Positions 6,971-47,500 are shown, numbered from the stretch's first letter. The stretch: DNA of 58,519 bases from Fidelibacterota bacterium (GCA_034660515.1 JAYEJI010000183.1:1-58519), one strand, 5' to 3'. Made by a program: numbers and translations. Notes: generated by a model not told the origin, from the letters alone.

Positions 6971-7005
6971 TCGTAACTCGTAACTCGTGACGCGTGACTC
7001 GTGAT
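6971..7005 (+). repeat. CGTRAC heptamer array (5 units) starting 3 nt after the DegV stop codon
   Basis: tcgtaac tcgtaac tcgtgac gcgtgac tcgtgat. Each unit carries TAA or TGA. Confidence 0.85.
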
Positions 7006-7020
7006 GCAAAGAATATTTAC

Positions 7021-7192: not shown

Positions 7193-7356
7193 CAACTTTT
7201 TTATTCATTATTGAATATTTCGACGTTTAATTTATTAATCTGTTTTAGTAGTACTAAAGATTTAACACTTGTAAAAATAACCTCATTATAATAAATTGGG
7301 CGGGATTATTTTATAAGTAGTATTTATAAAATAAAAAAAAGCACAGAAGGGAAATT

Positions 7357-8157: not shown

Positions 8158-8165
8158 GGACTATT

Positions 8166-9185: not shown

Positions 9186-9194
9186 GAGGATATT

Positions 9195-10910: not shown

Positions 10911-11012
10911 ATTTTTCCACAACAGGATGAATTGCGTTTTTCGTTTGGTATGAAAATCATAGTATTAAATTGATATTTTATTTATACTTTATGCAAAGCA
11001 GGAGGAATGACA

Positions 11013-11894: not shown

Positions 11895-11911
11895 TAGAAA
11901 AAGAAAGTTGC

Positions 11912-13498: not shown

Positions 13499-13515
13499 TA
13501 TCCCAACTTATAATA

Positions 13516-14268
13516 ATGGAGAATAATATGTATTATCTTGTTTTGGTATCCGGCTTGATACTCGGTTACCTTTCAGGTTCGGTGAGTTATGCCCGCATTT
13601 TTTCCCGTTTGGGAAAAGGGGTGGATATTACAAAAGTAGGCAACGGTAATCCCGGCACCTCGAATGTCATGAGAGAAGTAAGTAGATTTTGGGGTACTTT
13701 GACCTTTCTGGGCGATTCACTTAAAGGATCCCTGATCATGATCCTTTATAAATGGCTTTTCCTTTCTTCAGACCCTGTCGTAGCAATAAACCAGCCTTTT
13801 GACGGTGCCGGTTTTCTTGCTATCCTTTTGATCGGTATCGCAGCGATCTATGGCCACGCTTTCCCGATCTTTTACGGATTCAAGGGTGGTGGCTCGATCG
13901 GTGTTCTTTTTGGTTGCTGGTTGTTTTTGATCTTCCCCCAATTTTTGATCAATATCGTGATCGCATATATCATTGTTAAATTGTTTTTATCTAAACAAAA
14001 ATATCCAATGGGGCGCATGACACCCTTCGTCTTTCTGTTTATTACTCCTTTCTTTATGCTTGCAGAAAGTCTGTTCATTAAAGAATGGCATCCTTTTCAT
14101 GCCGGTTCTGTTCTTTTTGACCATATAGGATGGGGAAATCATTTTGTTCTCTTTAATGGGAACGGATGGATACTTATAGCCGGGATATTACTTTATGCTA
14201 TTGCTGTGATACCGACGAATTTTAAGATGTTGAAGACGAAAGAAATAATGGCGGAAAGTAACAAGTAA
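13516..14268 (+). CDS. plsY: Glycerol-3-phosphate acyltransferase PlsY (acyl-phosphate dependent), with a C-terminal extension
   Basis: It has the PlsY motifs GSVSYA, GNGNPGTSNVMR, GD.LKG and GHAFPIFYGFKGG. GGAG at 13519 supports an alternative start at 13528. At 250 aa it is longer than the roughly 200 aa I recall for typical PlsY. Confidence 0.8.
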   Translation: MENNMYYLVLVSGLILGYLSGSVSYARIFSRLGKGVDITKVGNGNPGTSNVMREVSRFWGTLTFLGDSLKGSLIMILYKWLFLSSDPVVAINQPFDGAGFLAILLIGIAAIYGHAFPIFYGFKGGGSIGVLFGCWLFLIFPQFLINIVIAYIIVKLFLSKQKYPMGRMTPFVFLFITPFFMLAESLFIKEWHPFHAGSVLFDHIGWGNHFVLFNGNGWILIAGILLYAIAVIPTNFKMLKTKEIMAESNK

Positions 14269-20854: not shown

Positions 20855-20883
20855 TTGACAAACATTAAATATTAGCATAAATT
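20855..20883 (+). promoter_or_regulatory. Sigma-70-like promoter of the receptor/T9SS-cargo operon
   Basis: TTGACA at 20855-20860, a 17-nt spacer, then TAAATT at 20878-20883. It lies about 90 nt upstream of the ATG at 20976. Confidence 0.45.
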
Positions 20884-20975
20884 AATCTGATTGAGTGATA
20901 AACATTATTTGGGAAGAATTTTACTTATTCACAATCATCAATTGGATTAATTCGTAAACACTAAGGAGTTGTTAT

Positions 20976-23900
20976 ATGAGGCTAGTAAAATTGTTAGTAG
21001 CAATGCTGCTTATTGTTGGTATTGCATTTGCGGGTACTTCCGGTAAAATTTCCGGTTTTGTCCGTGATGCCGATACGGGCGATCCACTTCCGGGAGCGAA
21101 CGTATTGTTAAACGGTACCTCCATGGGAGCGGCTGCAAATGCTGAAGGTTATTTTGTTATTCTGAACATACCTCCGGGTACTTACGACCTGGTTGCATCT
21201 TATGTTGGATATGCAAGACTTCAGAATAGTGAGAATAGAGTCATGATCGATCGTTTAACAACGATTGATTTTGACATGAAAGTAGAAGCCTTTGCGGGTG
21301 AGGAAGTGGTCGTGACTGCGAAACGCGACCTTATCCAAAAAGATAACGCCAGTGGTCAGTTGAACGTTTCATCCGATGAGATCGAAGCGCTTCCGGTTAC
21401 GACCATTTCTGAAGTATTGAGCCTTAAAGCCGGTGTTTCAGGTATGAGCGTTCGTGGTGGTGGTTCAGATGAAACAGCATTTATGCTCGACGGTATCACT
21501 CAGCGCGATGCCCGAACCAATGAACCGATCACGACGGTTCCTTTAAGCGCTATTGGTGAAGTATCAGTTCAAACCGGTGGTTTCAGCGTACGCTATGATG
21601 ATGCCCGTTCGGGTGTTGTCTCGGTTGTAACCAAAGAAGGTAAAGTAGACAAATATTCAGGTACGGTTTCAATGCGTATGAGTCCTGCCGCTCCAAAGAA
21701 CTACGGTATTTCAGTCTATGATCCCAACGGTTACTGGCTATATCCTTATTTGAACGATGACGTTGCCTGGACCGGTACGAACAGGGAATCGTTTACAGAT
21801 TTGAATGGCAACGGTACTTGGGATGAACATGAACCGTTAAATGATGTAAATGGCAACCATCGATATGACGTACCTTTAGATGATTATGCTTATGACCAAA
21901 TAAAAGGAAATTATTTCAATGGTTGGGAAAGCGCGGCAATGAAAACTTTACAAAATGCCGGAGATGCTAATGATCTGACCGCATCCGGTGCTCAGCAAGT
22001 TTTCCGATATGAACACCGTAAAGATGGTCAGATATATCAATCCGATTATAATATGGACATTGGTTTTGGTGGTCCGGTACCAGTCTTAAGTAAATTTGGG
22101 AATATGCGTTTTTACGCTTCTTATTTCCGTGAACAGACCATGTACCTTATTCCCTTGACAACCGATGGCCTTCAAAATCAGTCGGGAATGTTAAAAATAA
22201 CAACTGATATTGGCCAAAAAGGAAAATTATCATTAACGGGCCGCCTGGGTTCTTTGGACGGTACATCTGCATCAACTCAGGGATATTCATCATATTTCTC
22301 AAGTGCCTGGGGTATTGCGAATCGTTTGGATCGTTCAGGATTTACAGTTCCATGGCGTATTTTTACATGGTCCTATTTTTCACATTTCCGTCGATACGAT
22401 AATTCCCTTGCTGCAAAATATACGCAGCAACTGACTGAAAAAAGCTTTTTCGATGTATCTGTTTCACGGACACAGACTCGTTATTTAACAGGTCCGGATG
22501 CTCTGCGTGATACAGCAAAAACAGTTGAAGTTGTTCCCGGATACTTTCTGGATGAACACCCAACCGGTTATTGGCCCTACAATGAAAGCAGTATTGATGG
22601 AAAAGTGATGCATGGTGGTTCGCTGGGTGCCGGTAGAGACTCTACGATAACAGCAACTTATATGTTTGACGCAAATTATAAAAACCAGGTATCTGAGAAC
22701 AATGAGTTGAACGCCGGTATTAAATTTCAATTGGAAGACATACATATTGACTTCGGTGCAAAGAATCTGATGTTACCCGATGGTAATGAATGGAATGATT
22801 TTCATTATAAACCTTATCGTTTGACTGCTTGGGCTGAAGATAAGTTGGAATACGAAGGTTTTTATGCAACCCTCGGTATAAAAGGTATGTACTTCAATCC
22901 GAATTGTGATTGGTATTTTCCTGCAACATATGATCCGACATTCTTTACCGGAAATTTTGATGAAGCCACCATGCCGGATTCAATTATACGCCCCGCGCAA
23001 GCGCAGTGGTATATTACACCGGTTTTAGCGATCTCTCATCCGATCTCAGAAAATGCCAAGCTGTTCTTCAACTACGGACATTTTATCCAAAAGATCAATA
23101 CGCAAACCATGTTCCGTTACGAGCGTGAAATGAGTCAGCAATTGAATTATCTTGGTAATCCGGAAGCGGCTTTTGAACGTACGATCGCTTATGAGCTGGG
23201 TTTTGATATGTCAATGTTCGATATGTACACTTTACACTTATCGGCTTATTATAAAGATATTAAAAATCAGGCAAGTTGGACTGACTATGTCGGTCTCGGC
23301 GGGCAGGTCAACTACTCAGCTTTAAATAACCGCTACTATCAGGATATTCGTGGTTTTGAATTAGAGTTAAAAAAAGTAATGGGCGACTGGTTTACCGGTT
23401 GGGTTAACTTTGAATACCGTGTTTCCTCTTCAGGTTATTTCGGTGTAGGTGTTCTCTATGATAATGATATCGAGAATCGCGAATATCTGGAAAACAATCC
23501 TTACCAGAGCAAACCCCTGCCACGACCTAGATTTAAAGCATATTTTGATATCCATACTCCCAAGTATTTATCAAATCCGATACTTGCAGACTGGCATTTG
23601 GCGGTTATTCCAACTTGGACAGCTGGTAGTTATACCACTTGGAACCCGAAGAACGCAGAAGATATTCGCGGTGCTCGGATCACATACAATACGAAGTATG
23701 TGGATTACTATAACATCGCCCTGAAATTGTCTAAGAAATTAAAGATAACCGACAAGATATCACTGAAAGTGTTTGCCGACGTTTCAAATGCCCTGAATAC
23801 CAAAAGGTTTTCGAATGTAGCTTATTATGACACATACGACTACTATGATTATATGTATTCACTGCATTTCCCGGCAGAAATCGGAGATCCGCTTGATTAC

Positions 23901-24203
23901 GGTAATATCCCCGGAACAGATAAACCCGGTGTTTACCGTGATCTTGATGTAGAATATGTACCGATGCAGTATGTTGAAGATATTGCAAGTTTCTCAAATG
24001 GAAAAGAAGGTATCCTGTATTTCAATGATGTTGATGACGATTACTATGTTTTCAGCAATGGGGTATTTACAACGGAAAACGATGCCACTGTTGATCAGAT
24101 AATGAAAGATAAAGCATATATTGATATGCCCGCTTTCGAAGCCTTGACATTCCTGAATCCGAGAAACATTTTCTTCGGTGTGAATGTATCATTTGATTTC
24201 TAA
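20976..24203 (+). CDS. TonB-dependent receptor-like outer-membrane protein with an N-terminal CarboxypepD_reg domain (copy 1)
   Basis: 1075 aa with a signal peptide and a carboxypeptidase-regulatory-like fold (GKISGFV.D..TGDPLPGANV...G....A...GYF.I.NIPPGTY). A TonB-box/plug-like region (EEVVVTAKR ... LDGI) follows. The terminal beta-strand ends in F (FFGVNVSFDF). Confidence 0.8.
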   Translation: MRLVKLLVAMLLIVGIAFAGTSGKISGFVRDADTGDPLPGANVLLNGTSMGAAANAEGYFVILNIPPGTYDLVASYVGYARLQNSENRVMIDRLTTIDFDMKVEAFAGEEVVVTAKRDLIQKDNASGQLNVSSDEIEALPVTTISEVLSLKAGVSGMSVRGGGSDETAFMLDGITQRDARTNEPITTVPLSAIGEVSVQTGGFSVRYDDARSGVVSVVTKEGKVDKYSGTVSMRMSPAAPKNYGISVYDPNGYWLYPYLNDDVAWTGTNRESFTDLNGNGTWDEHEPLNDVNGNHRYDVPLDDYAYDQIKGNYFNGWESAAMKTLQNAGDANDLTASGAQQVFRYEHRKDGQIYQSDYNMDIGFGGPVPVLSKFGNMRFYASYFREQTMYLIPLTTDGLQNQSGMLKITTDIGQKGKLSLTGRLGSLDGTSASTQGYSSYFSSAWGIANRLDRSGFTVPWRIFTWSYFSHFRRYDNSLAAKYTQQLTEKSFFDVSVSRTQTRYLTGPDALRDTAKTVEVVPGYFLDEHPTGYWPYNESSIDGKVMHGGSLGAGRDSTITATYMFDANYKNQVSENNELNAGIKFQLEDIHIDFGAKNLMLPDGNEWNDFHYKPYRLTAWAEDKLEYEGFYATLGIKGMYFNPNCDWYFPATYDPTFFTGNFDEATMPDSIIRPAQAQWYITPVLAISHPISENAKLFFNYGHFIQKINTQTMFRYEREMSQQLNYLGNPEAAFERTIAYELGFDMSMFDMYTLHLSAYYKDIKNQASWTDYVGLGGQVNYSALNNRYYQDIRGFELELKKVMGDWFTGWVNFEYRVSSSGYFGVGVLYDNDIENREYLENNPYQSKPLPRPRFKAYFDIHTPKYLSNPILADWHLAVIPTWTAGSYTTWNPKNAEDIRGARITYNTKYVDYYNIALKLSKKLKITDKISLKVFADVSNALNTKRFSNVAYYDTYDYYDYMYSLHFPAEIGDPLDYGNIPGTDKPGVYRDLDVEYVPMQYVEDIASFSNGKEGILYFNDVDDDYYVFSNGVFTTENDATVDQIMKDKAYIDMPAFEALTFLNPRNIFFGVNVSFDF

Positions 24204-24237
24204 ACGGATTGAGAAAATAGAAATAAAGGGTAAACAT

Positions 24238-26394
24238 ATGAAATTAAGTAAAATAAAAGTGTTGGTAAGCGTTCTGCTCCTCGTGGGAGTGATGGTTCTG
24301 CCGGCACGGGACATTAAATGGCTGGCGATCTCCGATCTGCAGAACTGGTTTTCGTCAGAAGGTTGTGAGATCGAGGTTGGCCGTACCGGTGCGACCGGTG
24401 ATCAGATCGACGGTTTGCGATATCCGGCACTCTATACTAAACAGGATGTACAATGCGCGAAGAGTCTCTGGATCGGTGCAGCAGATTATACAGATCCGCT
24501 CTCAAGTCCTATATACGATCACAAAGTAGTAAATATCGGACCGCGTCAGGTAGACGATCAAGGTGCCATATTTGATATGGAATATAAGCTTATCGGGAAG
24601 AAAGAACGCCCCGCAGTTTATGTTGACGGTTCACCTGCCAATCAGCTGGTCTATTTGGAACCAAGTTTGGATGAAGTTGATCCGGATTTGCCTTGCGACA
24701 GAATGATCTACAACCGTATAAATACCTCTATGGGTATTTCTTTTACTCGTAAAGTGATGGCATTCTCAAATAATTATCATCAAGCATATCATTTGTATGA
24801 ATTTGAATTTTCCAATACAGGAATCATTGATGATGCAGGTACCGTTAATTCACAAACATTGACCGGGGTTTATTTTTATTGGACTGCCCGATATGCAATG
24901 AACCGTGAAGCAACGATCTATGAGCTGGGTATTCTGCCTCAGGCAGCTACCTGGGGCCGTAATACGATGAACCATGCTTTTGGTATTAAAGGTAATTGGG
25001 GCGCCGGTATGACTGAAGATATTAATATTCAAGGTACCGTAAAGACCATACCCACAAATTTGCGTGGTGTATTTTCATGGCAGGGAAGTTGTACAAAAGC
25101 TGCTACATCCCACGCAGATGATTTTGGTGCACCCTATGCCGAAGGCGATAAACGTTTAACATCAGTGCAGTTCCCGGGTATTGTTGTGATCCATGCGGAT
25201 ACGAGTCCATCTGATACAACTGATGATGTTAACCAACCGCATGCCTGGCAATCTATTGCAAGTGATTTAAAACCTCATACCAATAATATGGATCAATATG
25301 ATCGCCCTGCAATGGATGGACGTTATGAATATATGGAAGGTGTGGCTCCAGTAGGTTATTTAGATATGTCACATGCGGAATATGTAATAGCAGCTAATGA
25401 AATTCCTTTCGATAATATGCCTGATTGGCCGGGTAATGGTGGTGGACTCTCAGCCGCATATGGTTTTGGTCCCTATACCTTGGCATCCGGAGAATCAGTA
25501 AAGATCGTTTATGCTGAAGCTGTCGGAAGTATTGATATGAATACACGACGAACAGCCGGTCTTGATTATGATAATGGAGCAATTGATTTAGTACAAAAAG
25601 ATGCTATCATCACACAGGGTGTTGACAGTCTTTTCCAATATTTTGCAAGAGCAGATGCAAACTATAAATCAGGTTATAATGTAGCTTTTCCACCGGAAGC
25701 ACCGGAAAGTTTTTCCGTGATCGCCGGTGGTGATCGCATTAGCTTGACATGGGCTCGCAACAGTGAAAATTCAACAGGCTTTACAGGTTATCGGATCTAT
25801 AGAGCTTTAGGTGAATACGATTCAACTTATCATCTGCTTCTTGATGTGACTAATCCCAATGATTATGTTTTGGATGCAGATTACTGTAAATATGATGATC
25901 GTACTGCTGTTCGTGGTTTTGATTACTATTATTATATTGCTGCTTACGATGACGGAAGCGTTGACGGAGCCGGACGCCTTCTTTCAAGCAGTAAATTTTA
26001 TACTTTAACCAGCTCACCGGCTCAGTTGAAACGCTTGCCGGGTACCTCTCTTGAAAGTATTCGAATTGTACCGAACCCTTATCATGTTCGTGCAAAACAA
26101 ATGCAATTTGGTACTGCCGGGGGACAAGCTGACCGTATCATGTTCTACAATATTCCACCAAAATGTAATATTAAGATCTATACGGAACGTGGTGATCAGA
26201 TCTGGGAAACAGAACATGTCAACAACAGTGGTGATGAAGCCTGGGCATCCATTACGGACTTCCGTCAGGTTATTGTCAGTGGTGTGTATATTGTTGTGTT
26301 CACCGTCACCGAAGACTATGTTAATGAGTCAACGGGAGAGATATACTGCCTGGATGGTGAACAAAAGATCAAGAAATTTATAGTAGTAAGATAA
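24238..26394 (+). CDS. Secreted 718-aa protein of unknown family: novel N-terminal domain, FN3-like module and divergent T9SS-CTD-like end (partner 1)
   Basis: I place the start at MKLSKIKVLV (signal peptide, no lipobox), preceded by an aaaggg RBS. The FN3-like segment is PEAPESFSVIAGGDRISLTWA...GYRIYRA...YYYYIAAYD. The C-terminus is IRIVPNPY...MFYNIPPKCNIKIYTERGD...SGVYIVVF...KKFIVVR. Confidence 0.7.
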   Translation: MKLSKIKVLVSVLLLVGVMVLPARDIKWLAISDLQNWFSSEGCEIEVGRTGATGDQIDGLRYPALYTKQDVQCAKSLWIGAADYTDPLSSPIYDHKVVNIGPRQVDDQGAIFDMEYKLIGKKERPAVYVDGSPANQLVYLEPSLDEVDPDLPCDRMIYNRINTSMGISFTRKVMAFSNNYHQAYHLYEFEFSNTGIIDDAGTVNSQTLTGVYFYWTARYAMNREATIYELGILPQAATWGRNTMNHAFGIKGNWGAGMTEDINIQGTVKTIPTNLRGVFSWQGSCTKAATSHADDFGAPYAEGDKRLTSVQFPGIVVIHADTSPSDTTDDVNQPHAWQSIASDLKPHTNNMDQYDRPAMDGRYEYMEGVAPVGYLDMSHAEYVIAANEIPFDNMPDWPGNGGGLSAAYGFGPYTLASGESVKIVYAEAVGSIDMNTRRTAGLDYDNGAIDLVQKDAIITQGVDSLFQYFARADANYKSGYNVAFPPEAPESFSVIAGGDRISLTWARNSENSTGFTGYRIYRALGEYDSTYHLLLDVTNPNDYVLDADYCKYDDRTAVRGFDYYYYIAAYDDGSVDGAGRLLSSSKFYTLTSSPAQLKRLPGTSLESIRIVPNPYHVRAKQMQFGTAGGQADRIMFYNIPPKCNIKIYTERGDQIWETEHVNNSGDEAWASITDFRQVIVSGVYIVVFTVTEDYVNESTGEIYCLDGEQKIKKFIVVR

Positions 26395-26424
26395 ACAAGA
26401 ACATATAATTAGAAGGAAAGTAGT

Positions 26425-27030
26425 ATGAAAAAAGTATTGCTTATATCAATAGCTATCACATTGATAGCGCTTACAGGGTGTATCTATTCACCCGCAACGC
26501 ATGTTCCGACTGCTGCCGAACAGGCTGTATTGGATATCTTTGCAAATGACACATCAGCAACCATGGATACGGTTGACTGTGTGATCCTTGAGGCAGTAAA
26601 TGCCGAATGGAAAGAATCTTATATTGATACCGTCACCGGGTTTATCGGTATTGATACCAACTTTACGAATCCCTTTACTGCCGGAGCTGTTCTGGTACCG
26701 GGAAATGCCCAAAAAACACGTATCAATGTTATTGGCGCATATCTAAGCGGATATGCAAAGATCAGCTTAACGGCTGCAACCGAACTTAATTTATACATGG
26801 ATATCCATGGTTCTATTAAAGTTTGGGATGCAACCGGTACTCTCGTTGATTTTGATGTTTACGGTATGAGCCCCGCATGCGCAATGGTTTTTAAAGGTGA
26901 CGCAACCGGTTCCGTTATTCGTGAACATTATACATATTCACTGGATGCCGGAAACTACTATATTCGATTCACAAAAGCGGAGAACGCAGCATATAAAAGC
27001 AGAGGCTTCTTTTATGCTGTCGTTAACTAA
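26425..27030 (+). CDS. Small lipoprotein, function unknown
   Basis: 201 aa with an aaggaaag RBS and a lipobox (LIALTGC). Confidence 0.65.
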   Translation: MKKVLLISIAITLIALTGCIYSPATHVPTAAEQAVLDIFANDTSATMDTVDCVILEAVNAEWKESYIDTVTGFIGIDTNFTNPFTAGAVLVPGNAQKTRINVIGAYLSGYAKISLTAATELNLYMDIHGSIKVWDATGTLVDFDVYGMSPACAMVFKGDATGSVIREHYTYSLDAGNYYIRFTKAENAAYKSRGFFYAVVN

Positions 27031-27070
27031 TAATATTAGCTAATACATTTAGATATTTAAGGAGTTTAAG

Positions 27071-28054
27071 ATGAAACGAATTATTAGTATAATCCTTTTA
27101 GTCCTGATCGCATTCTCATTCGGCTTGGCCAAAGATCAAAAACTGGCTCAGACCGGCATGCAATTTCTTTCGGTAGCCACAGATGGCCGTGGAGCTGCAA
27201 TGGGTCAGGCAATGACCGCGATAGAAGCCTATTCGATGGCTTTCTTCTATAACCCTGCATCAGCAGCAAAAATGACAAAGACCATGGATCTGACAGCCAG
27301 TCAGAACAATTGGATCGCAGGGATCAAACACAATGCTTTTTCAGTTGCTTTCAACCCGTCAAACGGACGTTTTGGTGTTTTTGGTATCACAGCCCGCAAT
27401 ATCGATTACGGTGATGTAGATGCTACGATCGTTGCTGAGAATGACTTGGGTTACATTGACCTTGGAGTTATGAATCCTACAGCACTTTCTGTTAGTGTCG
27501 GTTATGCCCGTTCACTGACAGATAAATTCGCTGTTGGCGGTAATGTTGGTTATGTTGTTCAACAGCTTGGTCAAAGCGTTGTTCCTTACGGTGACAGCCT
27601 ACAGACCAAATCCAATGTTGCCGGTGGTATTACCGTTGATTTCGGTACATTATACTACACCGGTTGGAAAAGCCTGGCATTCGGTATGAGTGTCCGTAAC
27701 TTCTCCGGCGAGATCAAATATGAAGATGAAGGTTTTCAGCTTCCTTTGACCTTTTCAATGGGTCTTTCAATGGATGTTCTGGATCTTCTTCCCGAAAAAC
27801 CGCAAGGTCAATCTCTAAAGTTATCAGTTGATGCACTGCATTACCGTTCACATCCGGAACAGCTTAATATTGGGCTGGAATACGGTTTTGCGAACTTGGT
27901 ATTTGCACGTGCAGGTTACAGAACAAGTGAAGACATCCAGGCACTTAGCTTTGGTATTGGTTTGAATATCAAGGGTATTGTTGTGGATTACGCATATACA
28001 CCGACAGTGGATTTTGTCGATGTACAACGCTTCACAATTGGTTTTGCATTTTAA
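27071..28054 (+). CDS. PorV/PorQ-like outer-membrane beta-barrel (putative T9SS cargo shuttle)
   Basis: 327 aa with an aaggag RBS and a signal peptide. The N-terminal motif AQTGMQFLSVATDGRGAAMGQAMTA...NPA matches my recollection of PorV/LptO. It has alternating beta-strand patterns and a C-terminal FTIGFAF. Confidence 0.55.
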   Translation: MKRIISIILLVLIAFSFGLAKDQKLAQTGMQFLSVATDGRGAAMGQAMTAIEAYSMAFFYNPASAAKMTKTMDLTASQNNWIAGIKHNAFSVAFNPSNGRFGVFGITARNIDYGDVDATIVAENDLGYIDLGVMNPTALSVSVGYARSLTDKFAVGGNVGYVVQQLGQSVVPYGDSLQTKSNVAGGITVDFGTLYYTGWKSLAFGMSVRNFSGEIKYEDEGFQLPLTFSMGLSMDVLDLLPEKPQGQSLKLSVDALHYRSHPEQLNIGLEYGFANLVFARAGYRTSEDIQALSFGIGLNIKGIVVDYAYTPTVDFVDVQRFTIGFAF

Positions 28055-28072
28055 TTAACTGAATAACAAAAG

Positions 28073-31000
28073 ATGAGAATTATGCGCAAGATATTACATA
28101 TTATCATTTGCCTTGTCTTGTTGTCATCAGTATTGATGGCGGGAACCTATGGTAAGATCAGTGGTCGCGTTGTCAATACGGAAAATGATGAGCCTCTTAT
28201 TGGTGCCAATGTTCAGATTGAGGGAACAGGCCTTGGTTCATTTACAGACGAAAACGGTTATTTCGTTGTTTTAAATGTACCGCCTGCTTCTTATAACGTG
28301 ATTGCCTCCATGGTGGGTTATACAAAAACCATTGTGAAAGGTGTTCAGGTTCGTATCGATCTGACATCTAAAGTGAACATAGCTTTAAGCGAAGAAGTGA
28401 TCGGATTGGATGAAGTGATCGTTACCGCTAAAAAAGAGATCATTAAAGTTGATGTGGCAAGTAGCCAGACCAATATTTCTTCCGACCAGATCAAGGCACT
28501 TCCGGTACAAAGTATGAATGATGTTATCGGAATGGAAGCGGGTATTGATGAGAATTTCAATATTCGTGGTTCCTCAGCTTATGAAGCCGCATTCTCGGTT
28601 GACGGTATGAGTATGAACGATGAACGTTCAAACATACCTTATACAACCGTAAGTATCAACTCGGTACAAGCTGTCAATATTCAGATCGGTGGATTTAACG
28701 CCGAATATGAAAATGCCCGTTCCGGTGTGATCAATGTGGTAACAAAAGAAGGTAAAAAAGACAAATACGAAGCCGGTGTAACTATCCGTTATGCCGCAGC
28801 AAATAAAAAATATTTTGGACCGGTTATTACTGCTGCCGATGCCTATTTCGGTCGTCCATATAATGACGATGATGTAGCATGGTGGGGAACCGATCCTGAA
28901 AGTTTCTTGGATATCAATGAGAATGGTCAATGGGATCTTGGTGAACCCTTTGAAGATAGAAACGGAGATGCTATTTATACGGATTCTCCCTGGGATATTT
29001 ATGAACGAAGTTCAAACAGATCCTGGGAAGGCTTCAATGATTATTCTCTGAATAGTTTACGGGATAATGATGAAGATAATGATCTGACCGCAGCCGCATG
29101 GCAACGCGTTTATCAGTATCAACATCGCCGTTCTGCAAATATTGTCAGTCCCGATTACACTGTTGATGTCGGTGTGGGGGGGCCTGTGCCCTTTATTGGA
29201 GAGAAGCTCGGTAATTTACGTTTCTTTGCTTCTTATCGTGGAGAACAGGAAGCACTTGCAGTTCCTTTTGCAAGTGATACCTATAATGACAATAAAGCAA
29301 CTCTAAAATTGACATCTGACATTTCACCAAAGATCAAATTGAATATTTCCGCCATGTACAGTAAGACCCGGTCCGTTTCTTATGCGTCTTGGACCTCACT
29401 GCCTTCAGGCGAAAATTATTTTAAGTCTGTTTCTTATGCTACAAATGTTGCCAGTACGGATTATAGGGTTTTTATGGATGCAAGCTATTGTCCGACTGAG
29501 ATCACTCGTAGCAGCATTGGCTTACGCTTAACACATCAGCTTAATAATCACTCTTTTTACGAGGTTGATTTGCAGCGTATGGGGTCAGATTACTATACTC
29601 AGCGTTTGGCACCACGCGACACAACACGAAATGTTGAAGTTGTTCCCGGATACTTCCTGGATGAACAACCCTTTGGTTACTGGTTTACCGAAGACGGTGA
29701 TGGAATTGGCGGTTTTGAAGATGTTGTAGGTATGCGTACGGATTGGGGTGGTTTTGCGACTGACCGCAGTAAGAACTATACAACGATCGCAAAAGCCGAT
29801 TACAAAAATCAGTTCAATGAAAACAACGAATTTAAAACTGGATTTAAATTCGTTTATACCGAATATTACATTAATGCCTGGAATGATCATCCCGGCAACA
29901 TGTTCTGGAACTATTACAATGAATGGTATCAGGATCCATGGCGCTTGGGTGCTTATGCACAGGATAAACTTGAATTCGAAGGCATGGTCGTTAATCTCGG
30001 CTTGCGTTTTGATATGTCTCAGGCAAACACTGAATGGTATGTATATGACCAATTTGATGTATTGTTGAACACATCGAATGGCCCACATATCGACAGCCTT
30101 GCAACAAAGGCAAAAACAAAAGCCATCACGGCTTTAAGTCCTCGTTTTGCCATTTCACATCCAATATCCGAACGGGCAAAGATCTACTTTAACTACGGGC
30201 ACTTCAATGCTCTGGCTCAGTCACGTTATCGATTTGTTGTAGACAGACTGGGTACCGGACAGATCAATCGTTTGGGTAATCCTGAGATCCCTTACAGTCG
30301 TACGATCCAATACGAATTGGGATACGAACATCGCCTGTTTGATGATTACCTGTTTAAGCTTAAAGGATATTATAAAGATATCAGTGATCAGCCGGCGTGG
30401 ACATATTACACCAGTCTTGATCATAAGGTCAGTTACTCGGTTGCGGATGCAAGAAATTATAAAGACGTTCGTGGTTTTGAAGCTGAGATCAAGAAAAGTT
30501 ATGGTGATTTCTTTCTCTTTAATATGAACTTTACCTATCAGGTCGTTTCTTATGGTTACTACGGCAATACTCGTTACTACGAGAATCCGACAGAACAGAT
30601 GGAATACGATCGTGATAATCATATATCCACCCATTATCAAACACGCACCTTGCCGGTTCCTTTGTTTGAATCATACTTCCTGTTCCGCACTCCTGCGGAT
30701 TACAGTTTGTTTGGCTTAAATCCGATGATCACAGGCGATTGGGCTGCTAACCTGATGTTTGAGTGGCAAGCAGGTTCTGTTACGACCTATAGCCAGACAG
30801 ATGATCCTTATGTGAGGGATAATGTTCGCTGGAAAGATTACTATATGACAGACCTGAAGATCTCAAAGAGGATCAACCTCAAACCGGTAAGTGTTTCATT
30901 GTTCCTTGATATTAATAATGTATTGAATACCAAACGCCTGAGTTATTCCGGATTCTCCAATATTTATGATCGTTACGATTATCTGAATTCATTGCATTTT

Positions 31001-31312
31001 AGTGATGAAACAGGTGTTGAAATGGGCAATGATAAGATCGGTGATGTAAGGAAAGATGGTGTTGATTATACTCCGATCGTGAGTGTAAATGATATTAGTG
31101 CACGCACAACGGTAGGTAATACCCTGGCATTATATTACGATAATGTCAGTGAATCTTACTTTGCCTGGGATGGGTCTGCATTTGTAGCGGCTGACCAAGC
31201 TCATGTGGATCAGGTTTATAAAGATAAAGCATATATCAATATGCCCAATATAGATAGCTTTACTTTTCTGAACCCGCGTAAGATCTCTTTTGGTATAACA
31301 CTTAATTTCTAA
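28073..31312 (+). CDS. TonB-dependent receptor-like outer-membrane protein with a CarboxypepD_reg domain (copy 2)
   Basis: 1079 aa, colinear paralog of 20976..24203. Shared blocks are GKISGRV, GANV, GYFVVLNVPP, VIVTAKK, VEVVPGYFLDE, DKAYINMP and FLNPRK. It ends in F. Confidence 0.8.
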   Translation: MRIMRKILHIIICLVLLSSVLMAGTYGKISGRVVNTENDEPLIGANVQIEGTGLGSFTDENGYFVVLNVPPASYNVIASMVGYTKTIVKGVQVRIDLTSKVNIALSEEVIGLDEVIVTAKKEIIKVDVASSQTNISSDQIKALPVQSMNDVIGMEAGIDENFNIRGSSAYEAAFSVDGMSMNDERSNIPYTTVSINSVQAVNIQIGGFNAEYENARSGVINVVTKEGKKDKYEAGVTIRYAAANKKYFGPVITAADAYFGRPYNDDDVAWWGTDPESFLDINENGQWDLGEPFEDRNGDAIYTDSPWDIYERSSNRSWEGFNDYSLNSLRDNDEDNDLTAAAWQRVYQYQHRRSANIVSPDYTVDVGVGGPVPFIGEKLGNLRFFASYRGEQEALAVPFASDTYNDNKATLKLTSDISPKIKLNISAMYSKTRSVSYASWTSLPSGENYFKSVSYATNVASTDYRVFMDASYCPTEITRSSIGLRLTHQLNNHSFYEVDLQRMGSDYYTQRLAPRDTTRNVEVVPGYFLDEQPFGYWFTEDGDGIGGFEDVVGMRTDWGGFATDRSKNYTTIAKADYKNQFNENNEFKTGFKFVYTEYYINAWNDHPGNMFWNYYNEWYQDPWRLGAYAQDKLEFEGMVVNLGLRFDMSQANTEWYVYDQFDVLLNTSNGPHIDSLATKAKTKAITALSPRFAISHPISERAKIYFNYGHFNALAQSRYRFVVDRLGTGQINRLGNPEIPYSRTIQYELGYEHRLFDDYLFKLKGYYKDISDQPAWTYYTSLDHKVSYSVADARNYKDVRGFEAEIKKSYGDFFLFNMNFTYQVVSYGYYGNTRYYENPTEQMEYDRDNHISTHYQTRTLPVPLFESYFLFRTPADYSLFGLNPMITGDWAANLMFEWQAGSVTTYSQTDDPYVRDNVRWKDYYMTDLKISKRINLKPVSVSLFLDINNVLNTKRLSYSGFSNIYDRYDYLNSLHFSDETGVEMGNDKIGDVRKDGVDYTPIVSVNDISARTTVGNTLALYYDNVSESYFAWDGSAFVAADQAHVDQVYKDKAYINMPNIDSFTFLNPRKISFGITLNF

Positions 31313-31327
31313 TGATTCGAGGAATAT

Positions 31328-33550
31328 ATGTTTAGATCGAATATTTCAAATAAAATCCTAATAATTGCAGTATTGATACTGCTTTCGGCGATGGCGATCG
31401 GGCAAAGCTATATTGATCCGGGACTTCAAAAGTACATCAATGTAGGTTCTCTGCAATCTCCTTTCTCCGCGGGTGGCTGCGAACGGGCATATAATAATGT
31501 CTACTATGAGGGACTGAAGTGGCCGGCATGGTATTCCTATACGGATAACCATGTTATTGACCGTCAATGGCTGGTTTGTAAGAACTATGTAAATCCCGGC
31601 GGTACGACCTTTGACTATCTGGGTCTCTATTTTTCACCCAGCAGTTTGAATCCGGACTATGGTTTCCCCATGGTATTGACCCAAACCGCACAGTTCGAAA
31701 CGCCTATCGTAGAGGTCGACTTTAACCAGAAGATCGAAGAAGATTATATAGATGACTATCATGATGATGGTGTTAGCTATGATCGTAAACTGGTCAACGT
31801 ATTCAATAGTTATCTCGGTATTGAATATACCAGAACAGTATATGCCTATTCCCAGGAATACCATGATAATTATTTCATTACCGAATATGTATTGAAAAAT
31901 ACGGGTAATACCGATTATGATGCCGATATCGAACTGCCCAATAACAGTATTGAAGGATTGCTCTTTGGTATGATGCCGCGCTATGCCACCAGCCGTGAAG
32001 TCGGATTTGTGACCAGTGGGCAGATGACTTGGGGAAAAGACCAGTGGGTTTCCTTCATGAATATCGATGATGTTGCTACATCTACATACAATCCCGATAG
32101 TTTGCGCTGTTTCTGGACTTGGTTCGGACAAAACTCCGATATTTCATCCGCTTGGGATCATATCGGAGGACCCGATGGCGGAAAAGGAACCCTTTTCAAC
32201 AGTAGAGCCGGACGTCTGACAGGCCCCCAATTTGCAGGAATGGCCTTTGTTCATGCGGATAAATCAGCAACAGATAAATCTGATGATATCAGTCAGCCCC
32301 GAACTCTAAGCTGGCATGGTGGTGATTCATATCCTTCTGTTTACGGCAAGAGTGTATCAGGTTCTAAAAACCTGTATGATATGTTGACATGGGCATCTGA
32401 ATATGCTGATGCCGAAAGCGGTTTTGGAAAAGGGGATACTATTCCAATGGTAGGTCCTAATGCAATGCGCAAGCCATATGGTGATGAAAAACCGCAAGCT
32501 GATTTTGAAGCCAGCAAGAAAAATGACGGTGGCGGTGCAGCTGCCATGGTTGCTTTTGGCCCTTACGATCTGGAGATCGGAGAAAGTGTCCGTATCGTCC
32601 TTATAGAAGCTGTCAGTGGCTTGGATAGGCAAAATTGTGTTAAAGTCGGTGAGAACTGGCTGGCAAGCAAAAACCTTATCCTACCGGACGGTTCCACGAC
32701 AACGGACCGCGATGAATATAAAAATGAATGGTTTTATACCGGTCGCGATTCATTGTTCCAAACATTTAAACGTGCCCGGGCAGCTTTCCGTAATGACCTG
32801 GTTATTACCGAACCCCCGCTGCCACCCAGTACGTTCAGGATCAACTCCGAAGGTGATAATATCCATTTGAGCTGGGTAGACAGTCCTTCGGAAATCGATG
32901 TAAATTTTGGCGGTTATAAAATATATCGTGCCATGGGCTCTGTAGATTCTTTCTATCATGAAATATATGCCTGTGGTGCCGGTACGGGAAATCCGATCAT
33001 CTACGATTACAAAGATCGTGAAGCAATTCGCGGATTTTCCTATTATTATTATATTACCGCATTTTCAGACGGTAGTTTAAATACGGATGCAAGTCTTAAT
33101 CCGGTGGGTGAGCTCGAGAGCAGTCGTGCTTATACGCAAACAAAACGCGCTGCTTATCTGCGTCGCCCCCAAGGTTTGGATTTACAAAATATCCGTATTG
33201 TACCAAATCCCTACAACCTGAAAGCCGATTCCCGGAAACCGAATGCAACACAGTTGCAATTCCCGGGTGCTGACGGCTATGATAAGATCATGTTCTACAA
33301 TATACCGGGTAAATGTGTTTTGAAGATCTATTCGGAACGTGGTGACTTGGTCAAAGAGATCAATCATCAGACCGGAAGTGGGGACGAAGAATGGAAAATT
33401 ACAACATCAAGCGGGCAGATCGCCGTAGCAGGTGTGTATATACTTTTTGTAGAAGTAAGCGAAAATATTTATGTGGATGGTGATCCCACGAAAGACCTTG
33501 TCTATCGTGAGGGTGAATCCATATACAAAAAATTCATTATTGTAAGATAA
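31328..33550 (+). CDS. Secreted 740-aa protein, paralog of 24238..26394 (partner 2)
   Basis: It has a gagga RBS and a signal peptide without a lipobox. It shares FGPY.L..GESV.IV.AE and FN3-like GYKIYRA...YYYYITAF segments with partner 1. The C-terminus is IRIVPNPYNL...MFYNIPGKCVLKIYSERGD...AGVYILFV...KKFIIVR. Confidence 0.7.
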   Translation: MFRSNISNKILIIAVLILLSAMAIGQSYIDPGLQKYINVGSLQSPFSAGGCERAYNNVYYEGLKWPAWYSYTDNHVIDRQWLVCKNYVNPGGTTFDYLGLYFSPSSLNPDYGFPMVLTQTAQFETPIVEVDFNQKIEEDYIDDYHDDGVSYDRKLVNVFNSYLGIEYTRTVYAYSQEYHDNYFITEYVLKNTGNTDYDADIELPNNSIEGLLFGMMPRYATSREVGFVTSGQMTWGKDQWVSFMNIDDVATSTYNPDSLRCFWTWFGQNSDISSAWDHIGGPDGGKGTLFNSRAGRLTGPQFAGMAFVHADKSATDKSDDISQPRTLSWHGGDSYPSVYGKSVSGSKNLYDMLTWASEYADAESGFGKGDTIPMVGPNAMRKPYGDEKPQADFEASKKNDGGGAAAMVAFGPYDLEIGESVRIVLIEAVSGLDRQNCVKVGENWLASKNLILPDGSTTTDRDEYKNEWFYTGRDSLFQTFKRARAAFRNDLVITEPPLPPSTFRINSEGDNIHLSWVDSPSEIDVNFGGYKIYRAMGSVDSFYHEIYACGAGTGNPIIYDYKDREAIRGFSYYYYITAFSDGSLNTDASLNPVGELESSRAYTQTKRAAYLRRPQGLDLQNIRIVPNPYNLKADSRKPNATQLQFPGADGYDKIMFYNIPGKCVLKIYSERGDLVKEINHQTGSGDEEWKITTSSGQIAVAGVYILFVEVSENIYVDGDPTKDLVYREGESIYKKFIIVR

Positions 33551-33567
33551 AAATGAAAGGATGTAAA

Positions 33568-34794
33568 ATGAAGAAGACACTGATGAGTCTTAGTTTGATC
33601 TTAATCGTAGTCCTGGCATTGACAGGGTGTTATGAATGGCCGGATCCTATCTGGAATCCCGATGATACCGGTTTGCCGACACCTACTATCACCGGGGTGG
33701 ACGTAACGACCTTAATGGGCGGTATTGATAATATCACCATTACAGGTACTGGATTCGGTGATGTTAAAGAAGAAGTATTGGTCTATTTCAAAAAAGGTAC
33801 AACCGTTGGACGAGGTAGAACCCTTACGGCAACTAATACACAGCTCGTTGTTGAAGCACCTGCCACTTATTCGGATTCACTTGAGATCTGGATCGATCGT
33901 CGCGGATGTTTTGAATACGCAAAAGATACAACGAACCTGATCACTATCAATGCAGGTATAAAATCATTACCGATCATCTCGACCTCTCCTCTAATTAAGG
34001 TTGGTATCAATGAAAATGGTGATATCATCGTTGCTCAGGGATCAAACCAGAGTGTTATCTCTGTAACCGTTGATGATTCGATCTCAACTATTCCGGGTGT
34101 TGCCTTTTCCAACTCATTGAATATCTTATCATTGAGAACAAAGGGAACAGACATTTACTATACACTTCGTGAATATCTGGTAAAATATGATGGTGCATTA
34201 ACTCGTTTTAAAGTCAATGCAAATAAAGAAAATTGTGTTGATTTTGCCTTTGCCGACAACAATAAAGTTTATATTGTTGGAAATGGTTTTATCTATTCGG
34301 CCGATGATGTATTGGCAAGTTCGACACTTGCTCTTGATGATACTGATTATAATTTTACCAAATGCGATTTTTATGATGGCAAGCTTTATGTTGCTTCAAC
34401 CTATCAGGGTGATGACACTCTGAAAACAAATGAAAAAGCGATCATGGCTTATCCTGTCAATACCGATGGTACACTGGGTACAGCTGAAACGATCATTAAC
34501 TGGACAGATGATTTCGCCGGTTCGATCATTTCCAATATCACCTTTGATGCCGATGACAGAATGTACGTTGCAACCCTTACCCGCACACCGATCTATGTGA
34601 TAGAACCGGTTGCCGGTTCTTATGCTGATGGCAATATCAGTCTTCTGTATCCGGTATTGCTCAATGACAATATTATCAGTATGCGCTGGGAAACGGGTGA
34701 TTATATGGCCTTCCTCGCTGAAGACAACGATGCTATGAGAACAGTCTATCGCCTGAATATGCTCGAAACGGCTTCGGCCAGTTATATCCCCTAA
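33568..34794 (+). CDS. Lipoprotein with an IPT/TIG-like domain and a probable beta-propeller
   Basis: The RBS aaagga sits 6 nt before the ATG at 33568; the ORF-track start is 33553. It has a lipobox (LALTGC) and an IPT-like segment (PTITGVDVTTLMGGIDNITITGTGFG), followed by repeated strand-rich segments. Confidence 0.6.
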   Translation: MKKTLMSLSLILIVVLALTGCYEWPDPIWNPDDTGLPTPTITGVDVTTLMGGIDNITITGTGFGDVKEEVLVYFKKGTTVGRGRTLTATNTQLVVEAPATYSDSLEIWIDRRGCFEYAKDTTNLITINAGIKSLPIISTSPLIKVGINENGDIIVAQGSNQSVISVTVDDSISTIPGVAFSNSLNILSLRTKGTDIYYTLREYLVKYDGALTRFKVNANKENCVDFAFADNNKVYIVGNGFIYSADDVLASSTLALDDTDYNFTKCDFYDGKLYVASTYQGDDTLKTNEKAIMAYPVNTDGTLGTAETIINWTDDFAGSIISNITFDADDRMYVATLTRTPIYVIEPVAGSYADGNISLLYPVLLNDNIISMRWETGDYMAFLAEDNDAMRTVYRLNMLETASASYIP

Positions 34795-34888
34795 ATAAGC
34801 GGATAAAAATTATTGCATTTAATAAACGAAAATGTTAAGATATGACATTATAGCAAATAATTAGAAAATCTAATCAAAAGGAGAAAAC

Positions 34889-36364
34889 ATGAAGAAAATG
34901 TTAGCTGTCTCATTGGTGCTCTGTGCTGCCGTTGCGTTTGCAGGCCCTGCCGGATATTATTTCGGTGAGCTTATGTATAACTTTAATGGCGCCGACAGTG
35001 TGAAAACAGAATACACACTGCTGGATGGCTCAGGTGGACACCAGACATCACCACACAGTGTTGTAGTTGACCCCGACGGTAAAGTATGGATCGGTTACTA
35101 TTATGGTTATACCGGTCAGATTGAAAATGCCCTCGGTGATACACTTACCTTAAAAGGTATGCGAATATTCATGCCTGATGGTACACCTGCAACATTCTCA
35201 CCTATCGAATATCTAGAATTTGATGATGGTTCAAAAGATACCATTTATGGTGAAAGTGCATACAATGGTTCTTGCCGTGGTATGTCAGCAATGGCAAATG
35301 GTGATATCCTCTTTACTGCATGGTCAACGATCTATAAGATCGACTACACTACCGGTGAAGGTATTGCAATGTGGAATCCTCCGATGGACGGACATGTTGC
35401 CGGTTCGATGACCGAAGCAGCTCATGATCCTGAACTCGGATTGATCTACGCCGGTCGCGTTTCTTCAAACAAACCGATCTACGTTCTTGATGAAGACCTT
35501 GCTTATGTCGGTATTGCAGTTGATACCTGCCCGACACTGCATCGTTCAATCATCGCTCGTACAACTTCAACCGGTATGGGCCAAATTTTTTCAGGTACGA
35601 TCTGGAATGGCCAGGGTATCTTTGTTTACGAATCAGATGATCCTGAATTCACCATGTTCGAATTGGTTGACACTTTAGGTAACTATGATGTTGACACCGA
35701 TTCAAACACCATTACTTACAAAGCTTGGGCAAGTTGTTTGGACTGGGTTGATGTAGATGAAGGTGTTCTCGTCTATGGTAACTATCAATCAGCAAAAGTT
35801 TATGTTGATGTTGCTACTGCTCCTGCAAATACTCATTCATCAAAATGGATAATTTTTGATGTTGATGATGATGCAGAAGTTGCTCAATTTGGTGCTAAAT
35901 ACTCATACACATACGATGTAACTGAAAATACTGCCTCTGATTCACTTGACAATCAACCTGCAACTTGGGCACCTCGCGGTGCTTCAGTCAAAGTAGCTGG
36001 CGATCATTATGAATTCGTCATTGCTGACTTTGACTTAAGTACGATCCAAAAAGTTGTCTGGTCTGCAGATGGTCTTGAAGGTAACGACAGATTTGTTCCT
36101 TATGGCTTTGTCTTAGAACAAAACTATCCGAACCCCTTCAACCCGACCACAAGCATCTCTTTCCGTATTCCTGAAAGTTTTGATGTCGCTGTCGACGTTT
36201 ATGACTTAGCAGGTACGAAAGTTGCTACAGTTTATAGTGGCCGTATGGATGCCGGTACACATAACATGACCTTTGATGCTTCAAACTTAGCATCAGGTAC
36301 TTATGTTTATCAGCTGACAGCCGGTGAATTTACTGTATCACGTAAGATGACTCTCGTTAAATAA
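34889..36364 (+). CDS. Beta-propeller-like surface protein with a T9SS type A C-terminal sorting domain
   Basis: 491 aa with an aaaggag RBS and a signal peptide. The canonical CTD reads LEQNYPNPFNPTTSISF...VYDLAGTKV...SGTYVYQL...RKMTLVK. Confidence 0.8.
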   Translation: MKKMLAVSLVLCAAVAFAGPAGYYFGELMYNFNGADSVKTEYTLLDGSGGHQTSPHSVVVDPDGKVWIGYYYGYTGQIENALGDTLTLKGMRIFMPDGTPATFSPIEYLEFDDGSKDTIYGESAYNGSCRGMSAMANGDILFTAWSTIYKIDYTTGEGIAMWNPPMDGHVAGSMTEAAHDPELGLIYAGRVSSNKPIYVLDEDLAYVGIAVDTCPTLHRSIIARTTSTGMGQIFSGTIWNGQGIFVYESDDPEFTMFELVDTLGNYDVDTDSNTITYKAWASCLDWVDVDEGVLVYGNYQSAKVYVDVATAPANTHSSKWIIFDVDDDAEVAQFGAKYSYTYDVTENTASDSLDNQPATWAPRGASVKVAGDHYEFVIADFDLSTIQKVVWSADGLEGNDRFVPYGFVLEQNYPNPFNPTTSISFRIPESFDVAVDVYDLAGTKVATVYSGRMDAGTHNMTFDASNLASGTYVYQLTAGEFTVSRKMTLVK

Positions 36365-36385
36365 AATAACGAAACATCATACATT

Positions 36386-36413
36386 AAAAACCCGTCTTCG
36401 GACGGGTTTTTTT
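36386..36413 (+). terminator. Strong intrinsic terminator ending the 15-kb operon
   Basis: aaaaACCCGTC ttcg GACGGGT ttttttt. Confidence 0.9.
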
Positions 36414-36429
36414 ATATTTATGGATATTC

Positions 36430-36465
36430 TTCAGTAGCCTCGGGTTTAAACCCGAGGCTACTGAA
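36430..36465. repeat. Perfect 36-bp palindrome (family copy 1)
   Basis: TTCAGTAGCCTCGGGTTT|AAACCCGAGGCTACTGAA. It starts 17 nt after the terminator and ends 102 nt before the ATG at 36567. Confidence 0.9.
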
Positions 36466-36566
36466 AATTCTGTCTTTTAACTTCCGGCATCTGAATTCTA
36501 AATTATTTGCCCGTTTCCCAAAAACATAGTATCTTCGATAAGATATAAAACTGAACAGGCGGTATA

Positions 36567-45516: not shown

Positions 45517-45532
45517 AAGGAGCTGAGAATAA

Positions 45533-46828: not shown

Positions 46829-46872
46829 GTTTTCAATTCACGCAGTTCCCATGGAACGTGTGAGAGGATGAT

Positions 46873-47484: not shown

Positions 47485-47500
47485 ACGCGAGAGGCAATAC

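Follow-up and report, generated by a model that had tools for sequence, protein, structure and literature searches.

A conserved gene cluster of Fidelibacterota pairing SusC-like receptors with non-lipoprotein partners: a candidate surface uptake system

How could a TonB-dependent receptor work with a surface partner that carries no lipid anchor? To our knowledge, every surface partner so far described for a TonB-dependent transporter (SusD, RagB, BtuG, XusB, HmuY and TbpB) is a lipoprotein. The question is raised by a 15-kb gene cluster in DNA from a Fidelibacterota bacterium (GCA_034660515.1 JAYEJI010000183.1:1-58519), a stretch of 58,519 nucleotides (nt) that we refer to as the window. In this cluster two receptor genes are each followed by the gene for a partner that has a Sec signal peptide, lacks a lipobox and ends in a module resembling the C-terminal domain (CTD) of type IX secretion system (T9SS) cargo, and a gene for a PorV/PorQ-family barrel lies between the two pairs. 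Our analysis of related loci in the Fibrobacteres-Chlorobi-Bacteroidetes (FCB) group indicates that receptor and partner very probably form one functional unit. We tentatively favor the reading that this unit is an uptake module analogous to SusC/SusD, in which T9SS carries the partner to the surface and a cognate barrel of the PorV/PorQ type keeps it there.

Open reading frame (ORF) calling placed eight ORFs on the + strand between 20976 and 36364. The original prediction, made from the sequence alone, had described eight same-strand genes of these sizes and in this order, separated by 15-94 nt; with adjusted starts the intergenic gaps are indeed 34, 30, 40, 18, 15, 17 and 94 nt. The genes are as follows.

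20976-24203, + strand: receptor 1 (Ta), 1075 aa, divergent SusC-like TonB-dependent receptor
24238-26394, + strand: partner 1 (Pb), 718 aa, Sec signal peptide, predicted beta-supersandwich, FN3 domain and CTD-like C-terminal domain
26425-27030, + strand: lipoprotein of 201 aa, lipobox LTGC
27071-28054, + strand: PorV/PorQ-family outer-membrane barrel (V), 327 aa
28073-31312, + strand: receptor 2 (Te), 1079 aa, architecture as in receptor 1
31328-33550, + strand: partner 2 (Pf), 740 aa
33553-34794, + strand: lipoprotein g (gene 7), 413 aa, lipobox LTGC, N-terminal IPT/TIG domain
34889-36364, + strand: protein h (gene 8), 491 aa, type-A T9SS CTD

Two starts have alternatives. Partner 1 may begin at 24184 (first ATG, 736 aa) or at 24238 (718 aa, beginning MKLSK), and the gap between partner 2 and gene 7 is 2 nt if the gene 7 start is taken at 33553 and 17 nt otherwise.

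Receptor-partner pairs across phyla

We scanned one genome per GTDB species, which yielded 80 loci, each including at most 10 kb of flanking DNA at either end, and searched the ORFs of these loci with nine window proteins; the 42 loci with full flanks are called complete below. Adjacency was counted for the 79 full-length partner genes that have at least 3.3 kb of upstream DNA. A receptor gene lies immediately upstream on the same strand in 78 of them, with a median gap of 15 nt, so that the adjacency on which the original prediction was built is conserved in relatives from several FCB phyla. The pairing is also specific to type: receptors like that of gene A (Ta) always precede partners like that of gene B (Pb), and E-like receptors (Te) precede F-like partners (Pf), in every phylum sampled. 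Both the Ta-Pb and the Te-Pf pair have orthologs throughout Marinimicrobia/Fidelibacterota, Calditrichota, KSB1, Ignavibacteria and Kryptoniota. Strict, type-specific adjacency of this kind is the signature of physically cooperating proteins, as in SusC/SusD, and it is on this ground that we consider receptor and partner one functional unit with a high degree of confidence.

Within the window the two receptors are 38% identical over their full length and the two partners 33% identical (E 2e-98). Since the pair types are fixed in every sampled phylum, the duplication that produced them is older than the split between these phyla, with both pairs maintained ever since, which bears out the old duplication first suspected by eye. 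At least 33 of the 42 complete loci carry two partner genes, and the usual gene order is Ta Pb V (g) Te Pf (V) g h h. The closest relatives of the window, at 78-83% identity and with the same synteny, belong to Candidatus Neomarinimicrobiota, a name that NCBI treats as a synonym of Fidelibacterota. An affiliation with Cloacimonadota, as the original prediction had it, was rejected on account of these Marinimicrobia/Fidelibacterota relatives and the synteny shared with them.

Receptor 1 comprises a signal peptide, a CarboxypepD_reg N-terminal domain, a TonB-box-like motif, a plug and a large putative barrel, and both receptors end in F. The Pfam model CarbopepD_reg_2 scores above its cut-off in both proteins (66 bits for receptor 1, 70.2 bits for receptor 2), as does Plug (PF07715; 34.9 and 31.3 bits, cut-off 23.9). 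Between the N-terminal domain and the plug the receptors carry the motif EEVVVTA / DEVIVTA, which we take to be a putative TonB box of the SusC type. In the PDB, a 20-member receptor profile matched a SusC homolog (N-terminal domain), PqqU, YncD and PfeA (plugs) and, with profile positions 566-778, PhuR (barrel, E 4e-6). The Pfam barrel models gave no match, and a PDB search with receptor 1 as a single sequence returned the CarboxypepD domain as its sole match. Receptor 2 matches the SusC/RagA model TIGR04056 over residues 28-852 with 58 bits, far below the cut-off of 368, and receptor 1 has no NCBIfam match to this model at E 0.01; sub-threshold TIGR04056 matches occur in 18/20 members of the receptor family (best E 1.3e-21). 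Judged by these profiles, the receptors are genuine, divergent SusC-like TonB-dependent receptors and not formal members of the SusC/RagA family.

The partner proteins and the PorV-like barrel

The partners match no family in Pfam or NCBIfam, SusD/RagB included, and a PDB search with a 29-sequence full-length partner profile returned matches to the fibronectin type III (FN3) part only, in line with the non-SusD assignment proposed at the outset. Their signal peptides contain no Cys and hence no lipobox. Partner 2 can be divided into a signal peptide (residues 1-25), a predicted beta-supersandwich (about 26-495), an FN3 domain (about 496-600) and a CTD-like region (about 621-740). AlphaFold2, run on the partner family alignment, modelled the whole protein with a predicted TM-score (pTM) of 0.75. 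Foldseek matches of this full-length model were dominated by FN3 tandems, which swamped the search and made a separate model of the N-terminal domain necessary; the N-terminal 470 residues modelled alone reached a predicted local distance difference test (pLDDT) value of 82.6 and a pTM of 0.88. With this model Foldseek found the beta-supersandwich N-termini of cellobiose and cellodextrin phosphorylases of glycoside hydrolase family GH94, GH116 glucosidases and cyclic-glucan synthase, and the P1 domain of YidC. The predicted N-domain thus has the general supersandwich fold, which is galactose-mutarotase-like and typically carbohydrate-facing, and as modelled it differs clearly from SusD, whose fold is alpha-helical.

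The partner family is large, with more than 744 detectable members, which at NCBI bear the names 'fibronectin' or 'hypothetical'. Homologs occur in Marinimicrobia (82-83% identity), Caldithrix abyssi (43%), KSB1, Ignavibacteriales and others. A library clustered at 50% identity holds 916 partner-family representatives at E 1e-30 or better, a number that includes longer variants (1450-1600 aa) and, in a few cases, unrelated proteins with multiple FN3 repeats. In the long variants (P0122, P0125-P0127, P0174 and P0176) the supersandwich and FN3 domains are kept and are followed by other sequence. Signal-peptide cleavage in the family appears to fall just before Gln, with AIG before the cut and QSY after it in partner 2 (31328-31410) and a family consensus of A before and QV after. 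These sites recall the 'Q-rule' described for signal peptidase I substrates of Bacteroidetes (PMC5837995), which reportedly does not extend to the FCB group as a whole.

How might a protein without a lipid anchor reach and stay at the surface? The last 120 or so residues of the partners align with a profile of the window's type-A CTDs (hhalign probability 94%, E 1.4e-7). The C-terminus of PorZ is the best NCBIfam match in 8/10 partner tails, with E values down to 5.5e-8, and the tail of PorU and TIGR04183 are further matches; the PorZ model finds no match in the ordinary cargo protein h or in its paralog encoded downstream. Scores for the Pfam type-A CTD (PF18962) reach 12.7 bits or less in the partner tails, below the cut-off, and the type-B model CHU_C (PF13585) appears sub-threshold in 7/10 of them. 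By sequence, then, the partner tail is T9SS-CTD-like and closest to PorZ, and it meets no curated threshold; the combination of a signal peptide without lipobox and a CTD-like C-terminal module, which the original prediction had recognized, is upheld at this sub-threshold level. In the partners the CTD is more conserved than the N-domain (0.52 vs 0.43), and ordinary cargo h shows the same trend (CTD 0.44 vs body 0.29), so CTD conservation does not discriminate retained from cleaved CTDs.

Three other window proteins carry above-threshold type-A CTDs, namely h, its paralog and the protein encoded at 50047-52533, and because of these clear CTDs the organism evidently uses type IX secretion. Given a Sec signal, no lipid anchor, a T9SS-like tail and clear T9SS cargos in the same organism, export by T9SS is the partner's simplest route to the surface, and on balance we think it the probable one. 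The 50047-52533 gene (+ strand) encodes 828 aa with an NAGPA phosphodiester-glycosidase domain ahead of its type-A CTD.

The 327-aa protein V belongs to the PorV/PorQ family, as had been proposed. It matches the NCBIfam model PorV_fam (NF033709) over all of its positions (1-326 of 326) with 181.5 bits against a cut-off of 90, and Pfam PorV with 32.8 against 27; the only solved relative found in a PDB search by sequence is Flavobacterium johnsoniae PorV (6h3i_F, E 5e-5). Its scores lie below the cut-offs of the specific models, with 80.6/250 for PorV, 78.1/220 for PorQ and 53.6/90.55 for PorP/SprF. A PorV-like gene is present in at least 36/42 complete loci, and in several loci (L010, L021, L037, L041, L042, L050, L051 and L058) one such gene follows each receptor-partner pair. 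Barrels of this kind are known to hold CTDs. PorU and PorZ keep their CTDs, which are held by PorV and PorQ (PMC5562754), the retained PorZ CTD being bound by PorQ (PMC10202324), and type-B cargo is held non-covalently by adjacent PorP/SprF barrels (PMC9143113). A recent review extends this to cognate PorV-like barrels at large, proposing that they shield CTDs of this kind and keep them in place (PMC10202324). The co-location of V with the pairs, the one barrel per pair in several loci and the PorZ-like partner tail lend indirect support to V as a private barrel for the partner cargo. A dedicated PorV-like barrel beside its cargo is not new in itself, since PorQ with PorZ, and PorP/SprF with their type-B cargo, are already known to follow this rule (PMC9143113, PMC10202324).

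A proposed uptake module and its alternatives

In the reading that we tentatively favor, two anciently duplicated SusC-like transporters (Ta and Te) would each work with their own co-encoded partner (Pb and Pf). The partner, not being a lipoprotein, would be exported by T9SS and kept at the surface through its CTD-like domain, held by V as in PorQ-PorZ and in PorP/SprF with type-B cargo. The beta-supersandwich would then capture a substrate, most likely a glycan, and hand it to the transporter through physical contact, the part taken in Bacteroidota by SusD, BtuG or XusB, with g and the propeller-CTD proteins h acting as accessory surface binders or enzymes. By analogy, anchoring of the PorZ-like tail by V would fit the PorQ/PorP-type retention scheme, and we regard it as a serious candidate just short of being the expected arrangement. 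Glycan capture by the supersandwich and transfer to the transporter is a possibility that we hold to be rather unlikely; the idea derives from the fold and the glycosidase-like neighbors. A glycan substrate is hinted at by neighbors combining GHL10, Big_5 and CTD domains in related loci, by NamZ and CBM20, and by GH13 genes and a sugar-type symporter upstream in the window. A role for the partner as lid or binder on its receptor we purely infer. It is similarly doubtful that the cluster represents an ancient SusCD replacement in non-Bacteroidia FCB bacteria, in which two SusC-like transporters would each be capped by a supersandwich-FN3 protein.

Several observations weigh against the proposed module. 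The Foldseek matches of the N-domain (E about 5e-6, TM 0.3-0.36) express a general likeness only. Between phyla the partner keeps about 43% identity and a large number of invariant polar residues; such conservation, far above what is usual for SusD-like binders, is also compatible with an enzyme or with a housekeeping ligand that stays the same. On the side of export, TIGR04183 scores 13.9 bits in the window partners and 22.7 in the best relative against a cut-off of 23, the best CHU_C score of any partner tail is 20.2 bits against 27, a PDB search by sequence with the partner CTD profile found no match, and the 58,519-nt window contains no T9SS core gene. On the side of the barrel, some complete loci (e.g. 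L019, L036, L052 and L074) have no V gene within 10 kb, and a neighbor-joining tree of V orders the proteins mostly by lineage, with partial grouping by position and no clean split by preceding partner type. Finally, the Pfam and NCBIfam searches found no carbohydrate-active enzyme (CAZyme) or regulator in the cluster and its ninth gene (20976-38087); as they found no SusD either, the region does not qualify as a polysaccharide utilization locus (PUL).

Among known systems, the cluster resembles in layout the SusC/SusD (RagA/RagB) transporter pairs of Bacteroidota and their utilisomes. The CarboxypepD_reg domain, the plug, the putative barrel of about 1000 aa and the partner gene immediately downstream are shared, and a TIG lipoprotein and CTD-bearing proteins occupy the positions of SusE/F and of the enzymes, respectively. 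In contrast to SusD, the cluster partner is a non-lipoprotein, and it shares with SusD neither an alpha-helical fold nor any homology. The receptor scores 58 bits where SusC/RagA membership takes 368, there is no regulator, and a PorV-like barrel belongs to the locus. Moreover, two fixed orthologous pairs recur across phyla, whereas SusC/SusD systems occur in many substrate-specific copies. In BtuG-BtuB, XusB-XusA and HmuY-HmuR a beta-rich surface protein encoded beside a TonB-dependent transporter captures the ligand of that transporter, and the cluster resembles these systems in having a beta-rich partner encoded next to its transporter. It differs from them in that BtuG, XusB and HmuY are lipoproteins exported by the lipoprotein pathway, with propeller or small-sandwich folds, and we know of none among them that has a T9SS CTD or an accompanying PorV-like barrel.

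With PorQ-PorZ and PorV-PorU the cluster shares the pairing of a 14-strand-type barrel of the PorV/PorQ family with a surface protein (PMC5562754, PMC10202324), and its partner tail is most like that of PorZ. The CTD is retained as an anchor in those systems, and its retention in the cluster would be the corresponding step. The cluster cargo differs in being a receptor-linked supersandwich-FN3 protein and not a T9SS component, and V falls below the PorV and PorQ equivalog cut-offs. In SprB-SprF and PG1035-PorP, which involve type-B CTD cargo, a cargo gene and a dedicated PorV-like barrel gene adjoin as they do here (PMC9143113). The cluster's scores fall short for CHU_C (20.2 vs 27) and for PorP/SprF (53.6 vs 90.55), its partner tail is nearer to type-A/PorZ CTDs, and nothing in SprB-SprF or PG1035-PorP corresponds to its association with a TonB-dependent receptor.

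In the best-surviving alternative, T9SS delivers the partner to the surface or the extracellular space, where it is not a lid but an enzyme, or a free binding protein, acting upstream of the transporter and processing a polymer, the products of which the receptor imports. We consider this unlikely, though well worth keeping in view. It would account for the roughly 43% identity across phyla and for the invariant Asp, Glu, His, Arg and Tyr of the N-domain, which are more usual in catalytic sites than in SusD-like binders; glycan-active enzymes contain the supersandwich fold, and CTD-bearing, glycosidase-like GHL10 proteins accompany the cluster in related loci. In the matched enzymes, however, the supersandwich is an accessory and not a catalytic domain, and neither Pfam, NCBIfam nor the PDB profile search assigned the partner to an enzyme family. 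The strict one-to-one, type-specific adjacency is likewise the pattern of a physical partner, whereas PUL enzymes vary in position.

Alternatively, V could be a general PorV/PorQ component or a FadL-like channel and the partner ordinary type-A cargo, cleaved by PorU and then lipid-linked or released. This is improbable in our view. Sub-cut-off scores for the PorV, PorQ and PorP equivalogs, loci without V and a V tree that does not track partner type are all what it would lead one to expect, and the higher conservation of ordinary h CTDs relative to their bodies means that the partner's conserved CTD is no sign of a special role. It sits poorly with how regularly V accompanies the pairs, being encoded in at least 86% of the complete loci from the various phyla and frequently duplicated along with its pair, and with a partner tail closest to that of PorZ, which is retained on PorQ (PMC10202324), when the cargo proteins h and its paralog do not match PorZ.

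A third alternative dispenses with import, so that the receptor-like barrel would export or assemble the partner, or the whole set would build a structural or adhesive surface layer; we think this quite improbable. The TonB-dependent transporter Oar of Myxococcus has reportedly been proposed to export the protease PopC. The cluster looks like a locus of the housekeeping type, its two pair types being fixed and the window showing neither a regulator nor catabolic genes. This would suit such a role, as would the FN3 and Ig-like modules of the partner, which are typical of surface layers and adhesins. The plug, the TonB-box-like motif and the SusC-like architecture point instead to import, the partner already has a T9SS-type export signal, and the recurrent neighbors are glycosidase-like and binding proteins. 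An ordinary SusC/SusD PUL with a SusD too divergent to recognize, as the order of receptor, partner and surface proteins might mimic, is refuted as far as sequence and predicted fold show and was rejected, since the partner has no lipobox and no SusD/RagB match and is predicted to be almost all beta where SusD has an alpha-helical TPR fold; any chance left to it is minute.

Counterparts are known for each ingredient of the proposed module, namely receptors of the SusC type that work with a surface partner, and T9SS cargo with a cognate PorV-like barrel. Their combination, with a non-lipoprotein T9SS-type partner in the SusD position and its own barrel, appears to be undescribed. We found no description of the receptor-partner-barrel cluster in the full-text literature, in the Melioribacter and Caldithrix genome papers or in T9SS reviews, a body of literature that our searches covered incompletely, and the original prediction likewise knew of no system with this architecture. 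If the proposal is correct, a T9SS-cargo partner seated on its own PorV-like barrel would link type IX secretion with SusC-type import in the FCB group. Lipoprotein export and Slam would be joined by a third way of placing a transporter partner on the cell surface, T9SS would gain its first structural role in nutrient import, and a protein family now annotated 'fibronectin' or 'hypothetical' would be given a function. The module, with both pairs kept, is found in abundant and poorly cultured lineages, such as marine Marinimicrobia/SAR406, sediment Calditrichota, KSB1 and Ignavibacteria, and its substrate would bear on how these lineages feed. Caldithrix abyssi is cultured and carries a partner homolog, which makes the hypothesis directly testable.

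Cluster boundaries, accessory genes and surroundings

Three further features mark the ends of the cluster.

20855-20883, + strand: promoter-like site TTGACA-17-TAAATT, matching 10/12 consensus positions, in the 125-nt gap after a dnaX-like gene
36386-36411, + strand: intrinsic terminator, 11-bp stem with 5 G-C pairs, then a T-run
36567-38087, + strand: paralog of h (ninth gene), 506 aa, type-A CTD, beyond the terminator

The original prediction saw the cluster bracketed by a near-consensus promoter and a strong terminator. The terminator stands, with its 11-bp stem and T-run, and is the second strongest hairpin of the scan. The promoter match is present but occurs at chance frequency, the region containing 52 promoter-like matches where 52.4 are expected in shuffled sequence, so its intergenic position is the sole support for a promoter. 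Directly after the terminator, within the 202-nt gap before the ninth gene, lies a perfect 16-bp hairpin (36430-36465) with 9 G-C pairs, a loop of 4 and no T-run. The ninth gene is 42% identical to h and is probably a transcription unit of its own that belongs to the same functional set as the cluster.

Both h and this paralog exceed the cut-offs for PF18962 (40.1 and 39.4 bits vs 27) and for TIGR04183 (41 and 39.8 bits vs 23). Gene 7 matches Pfam TIG with 27.8 bits, and neither gene 7 nor gene 8 has a PDB match by sequence. Thus the IPT/TIG domain originally assigned to gene 7 and the CTD of gene 8 are borne out, whereas the propeller attributed to gene 8 is less well grounded: homologs of h give sub-threshold matches to Reg_prop, SGL and NHL, from which the N-terminal part of h is probably a beta-propeller. 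In gene 7, for which a propeller had likewise been put forward, the sequence outside the TIG domain has no domain assignment. The lipoprotein g is kept in 58/80 loci, and a TIG lipoprotein is present in 36/42 complete loci. One h protein of the related loci has a CBM20 domain.

The 201-aa lipoprotein is restricted to close Marinimicrobia relatives, and other lineages have an unrelated gene of about 204 aa in its slot. This second protein, encoded between Pb and the PorV-like gene in 23 loci (e.g. L025:2323-2937), matches no family, often has a lipobox-like motif and shows no detectable similarity to the window's 201-aa lipoprotein. Further neighbors recur in related loci and are absent from the window cluster. 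A protein of about 1000 aa with GHL10 (PF02638), Big_5 and a T9SS CTD is encoded in 26/42 complete loci, among them L009, L016 (L016:14993-18115), L036 and L043; a PD40 protein occurs in 12 loci and NamZ (exo-muramidase) genes in 6.

Upstream of the cluster, on the - strand, lie two GH13 alpha-amylase-type genes and a sodium:solute symporter gene (3526-6009, 14698-16536 and 16609-18669). One of the GH13 genes carries CBM48 and the other the glycogen-binding module AMPK1_CBM, and together with the symporter they give a weak hint of alpha-glucan use near the cluster. The intervening region, 6086-14268, is a housekeeping block with two DegV genes, a FakA-like fatty-acid kinase, PlsY, electron transfer flavoprotein (ETF) alpha/beta and acyl-CoA dehydrogenase. 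Downstream, a V/A-type ATPase operon occupies 43783-49312, and a Fic/DUF4172 gene is located at 55995-57089 on the - strand.

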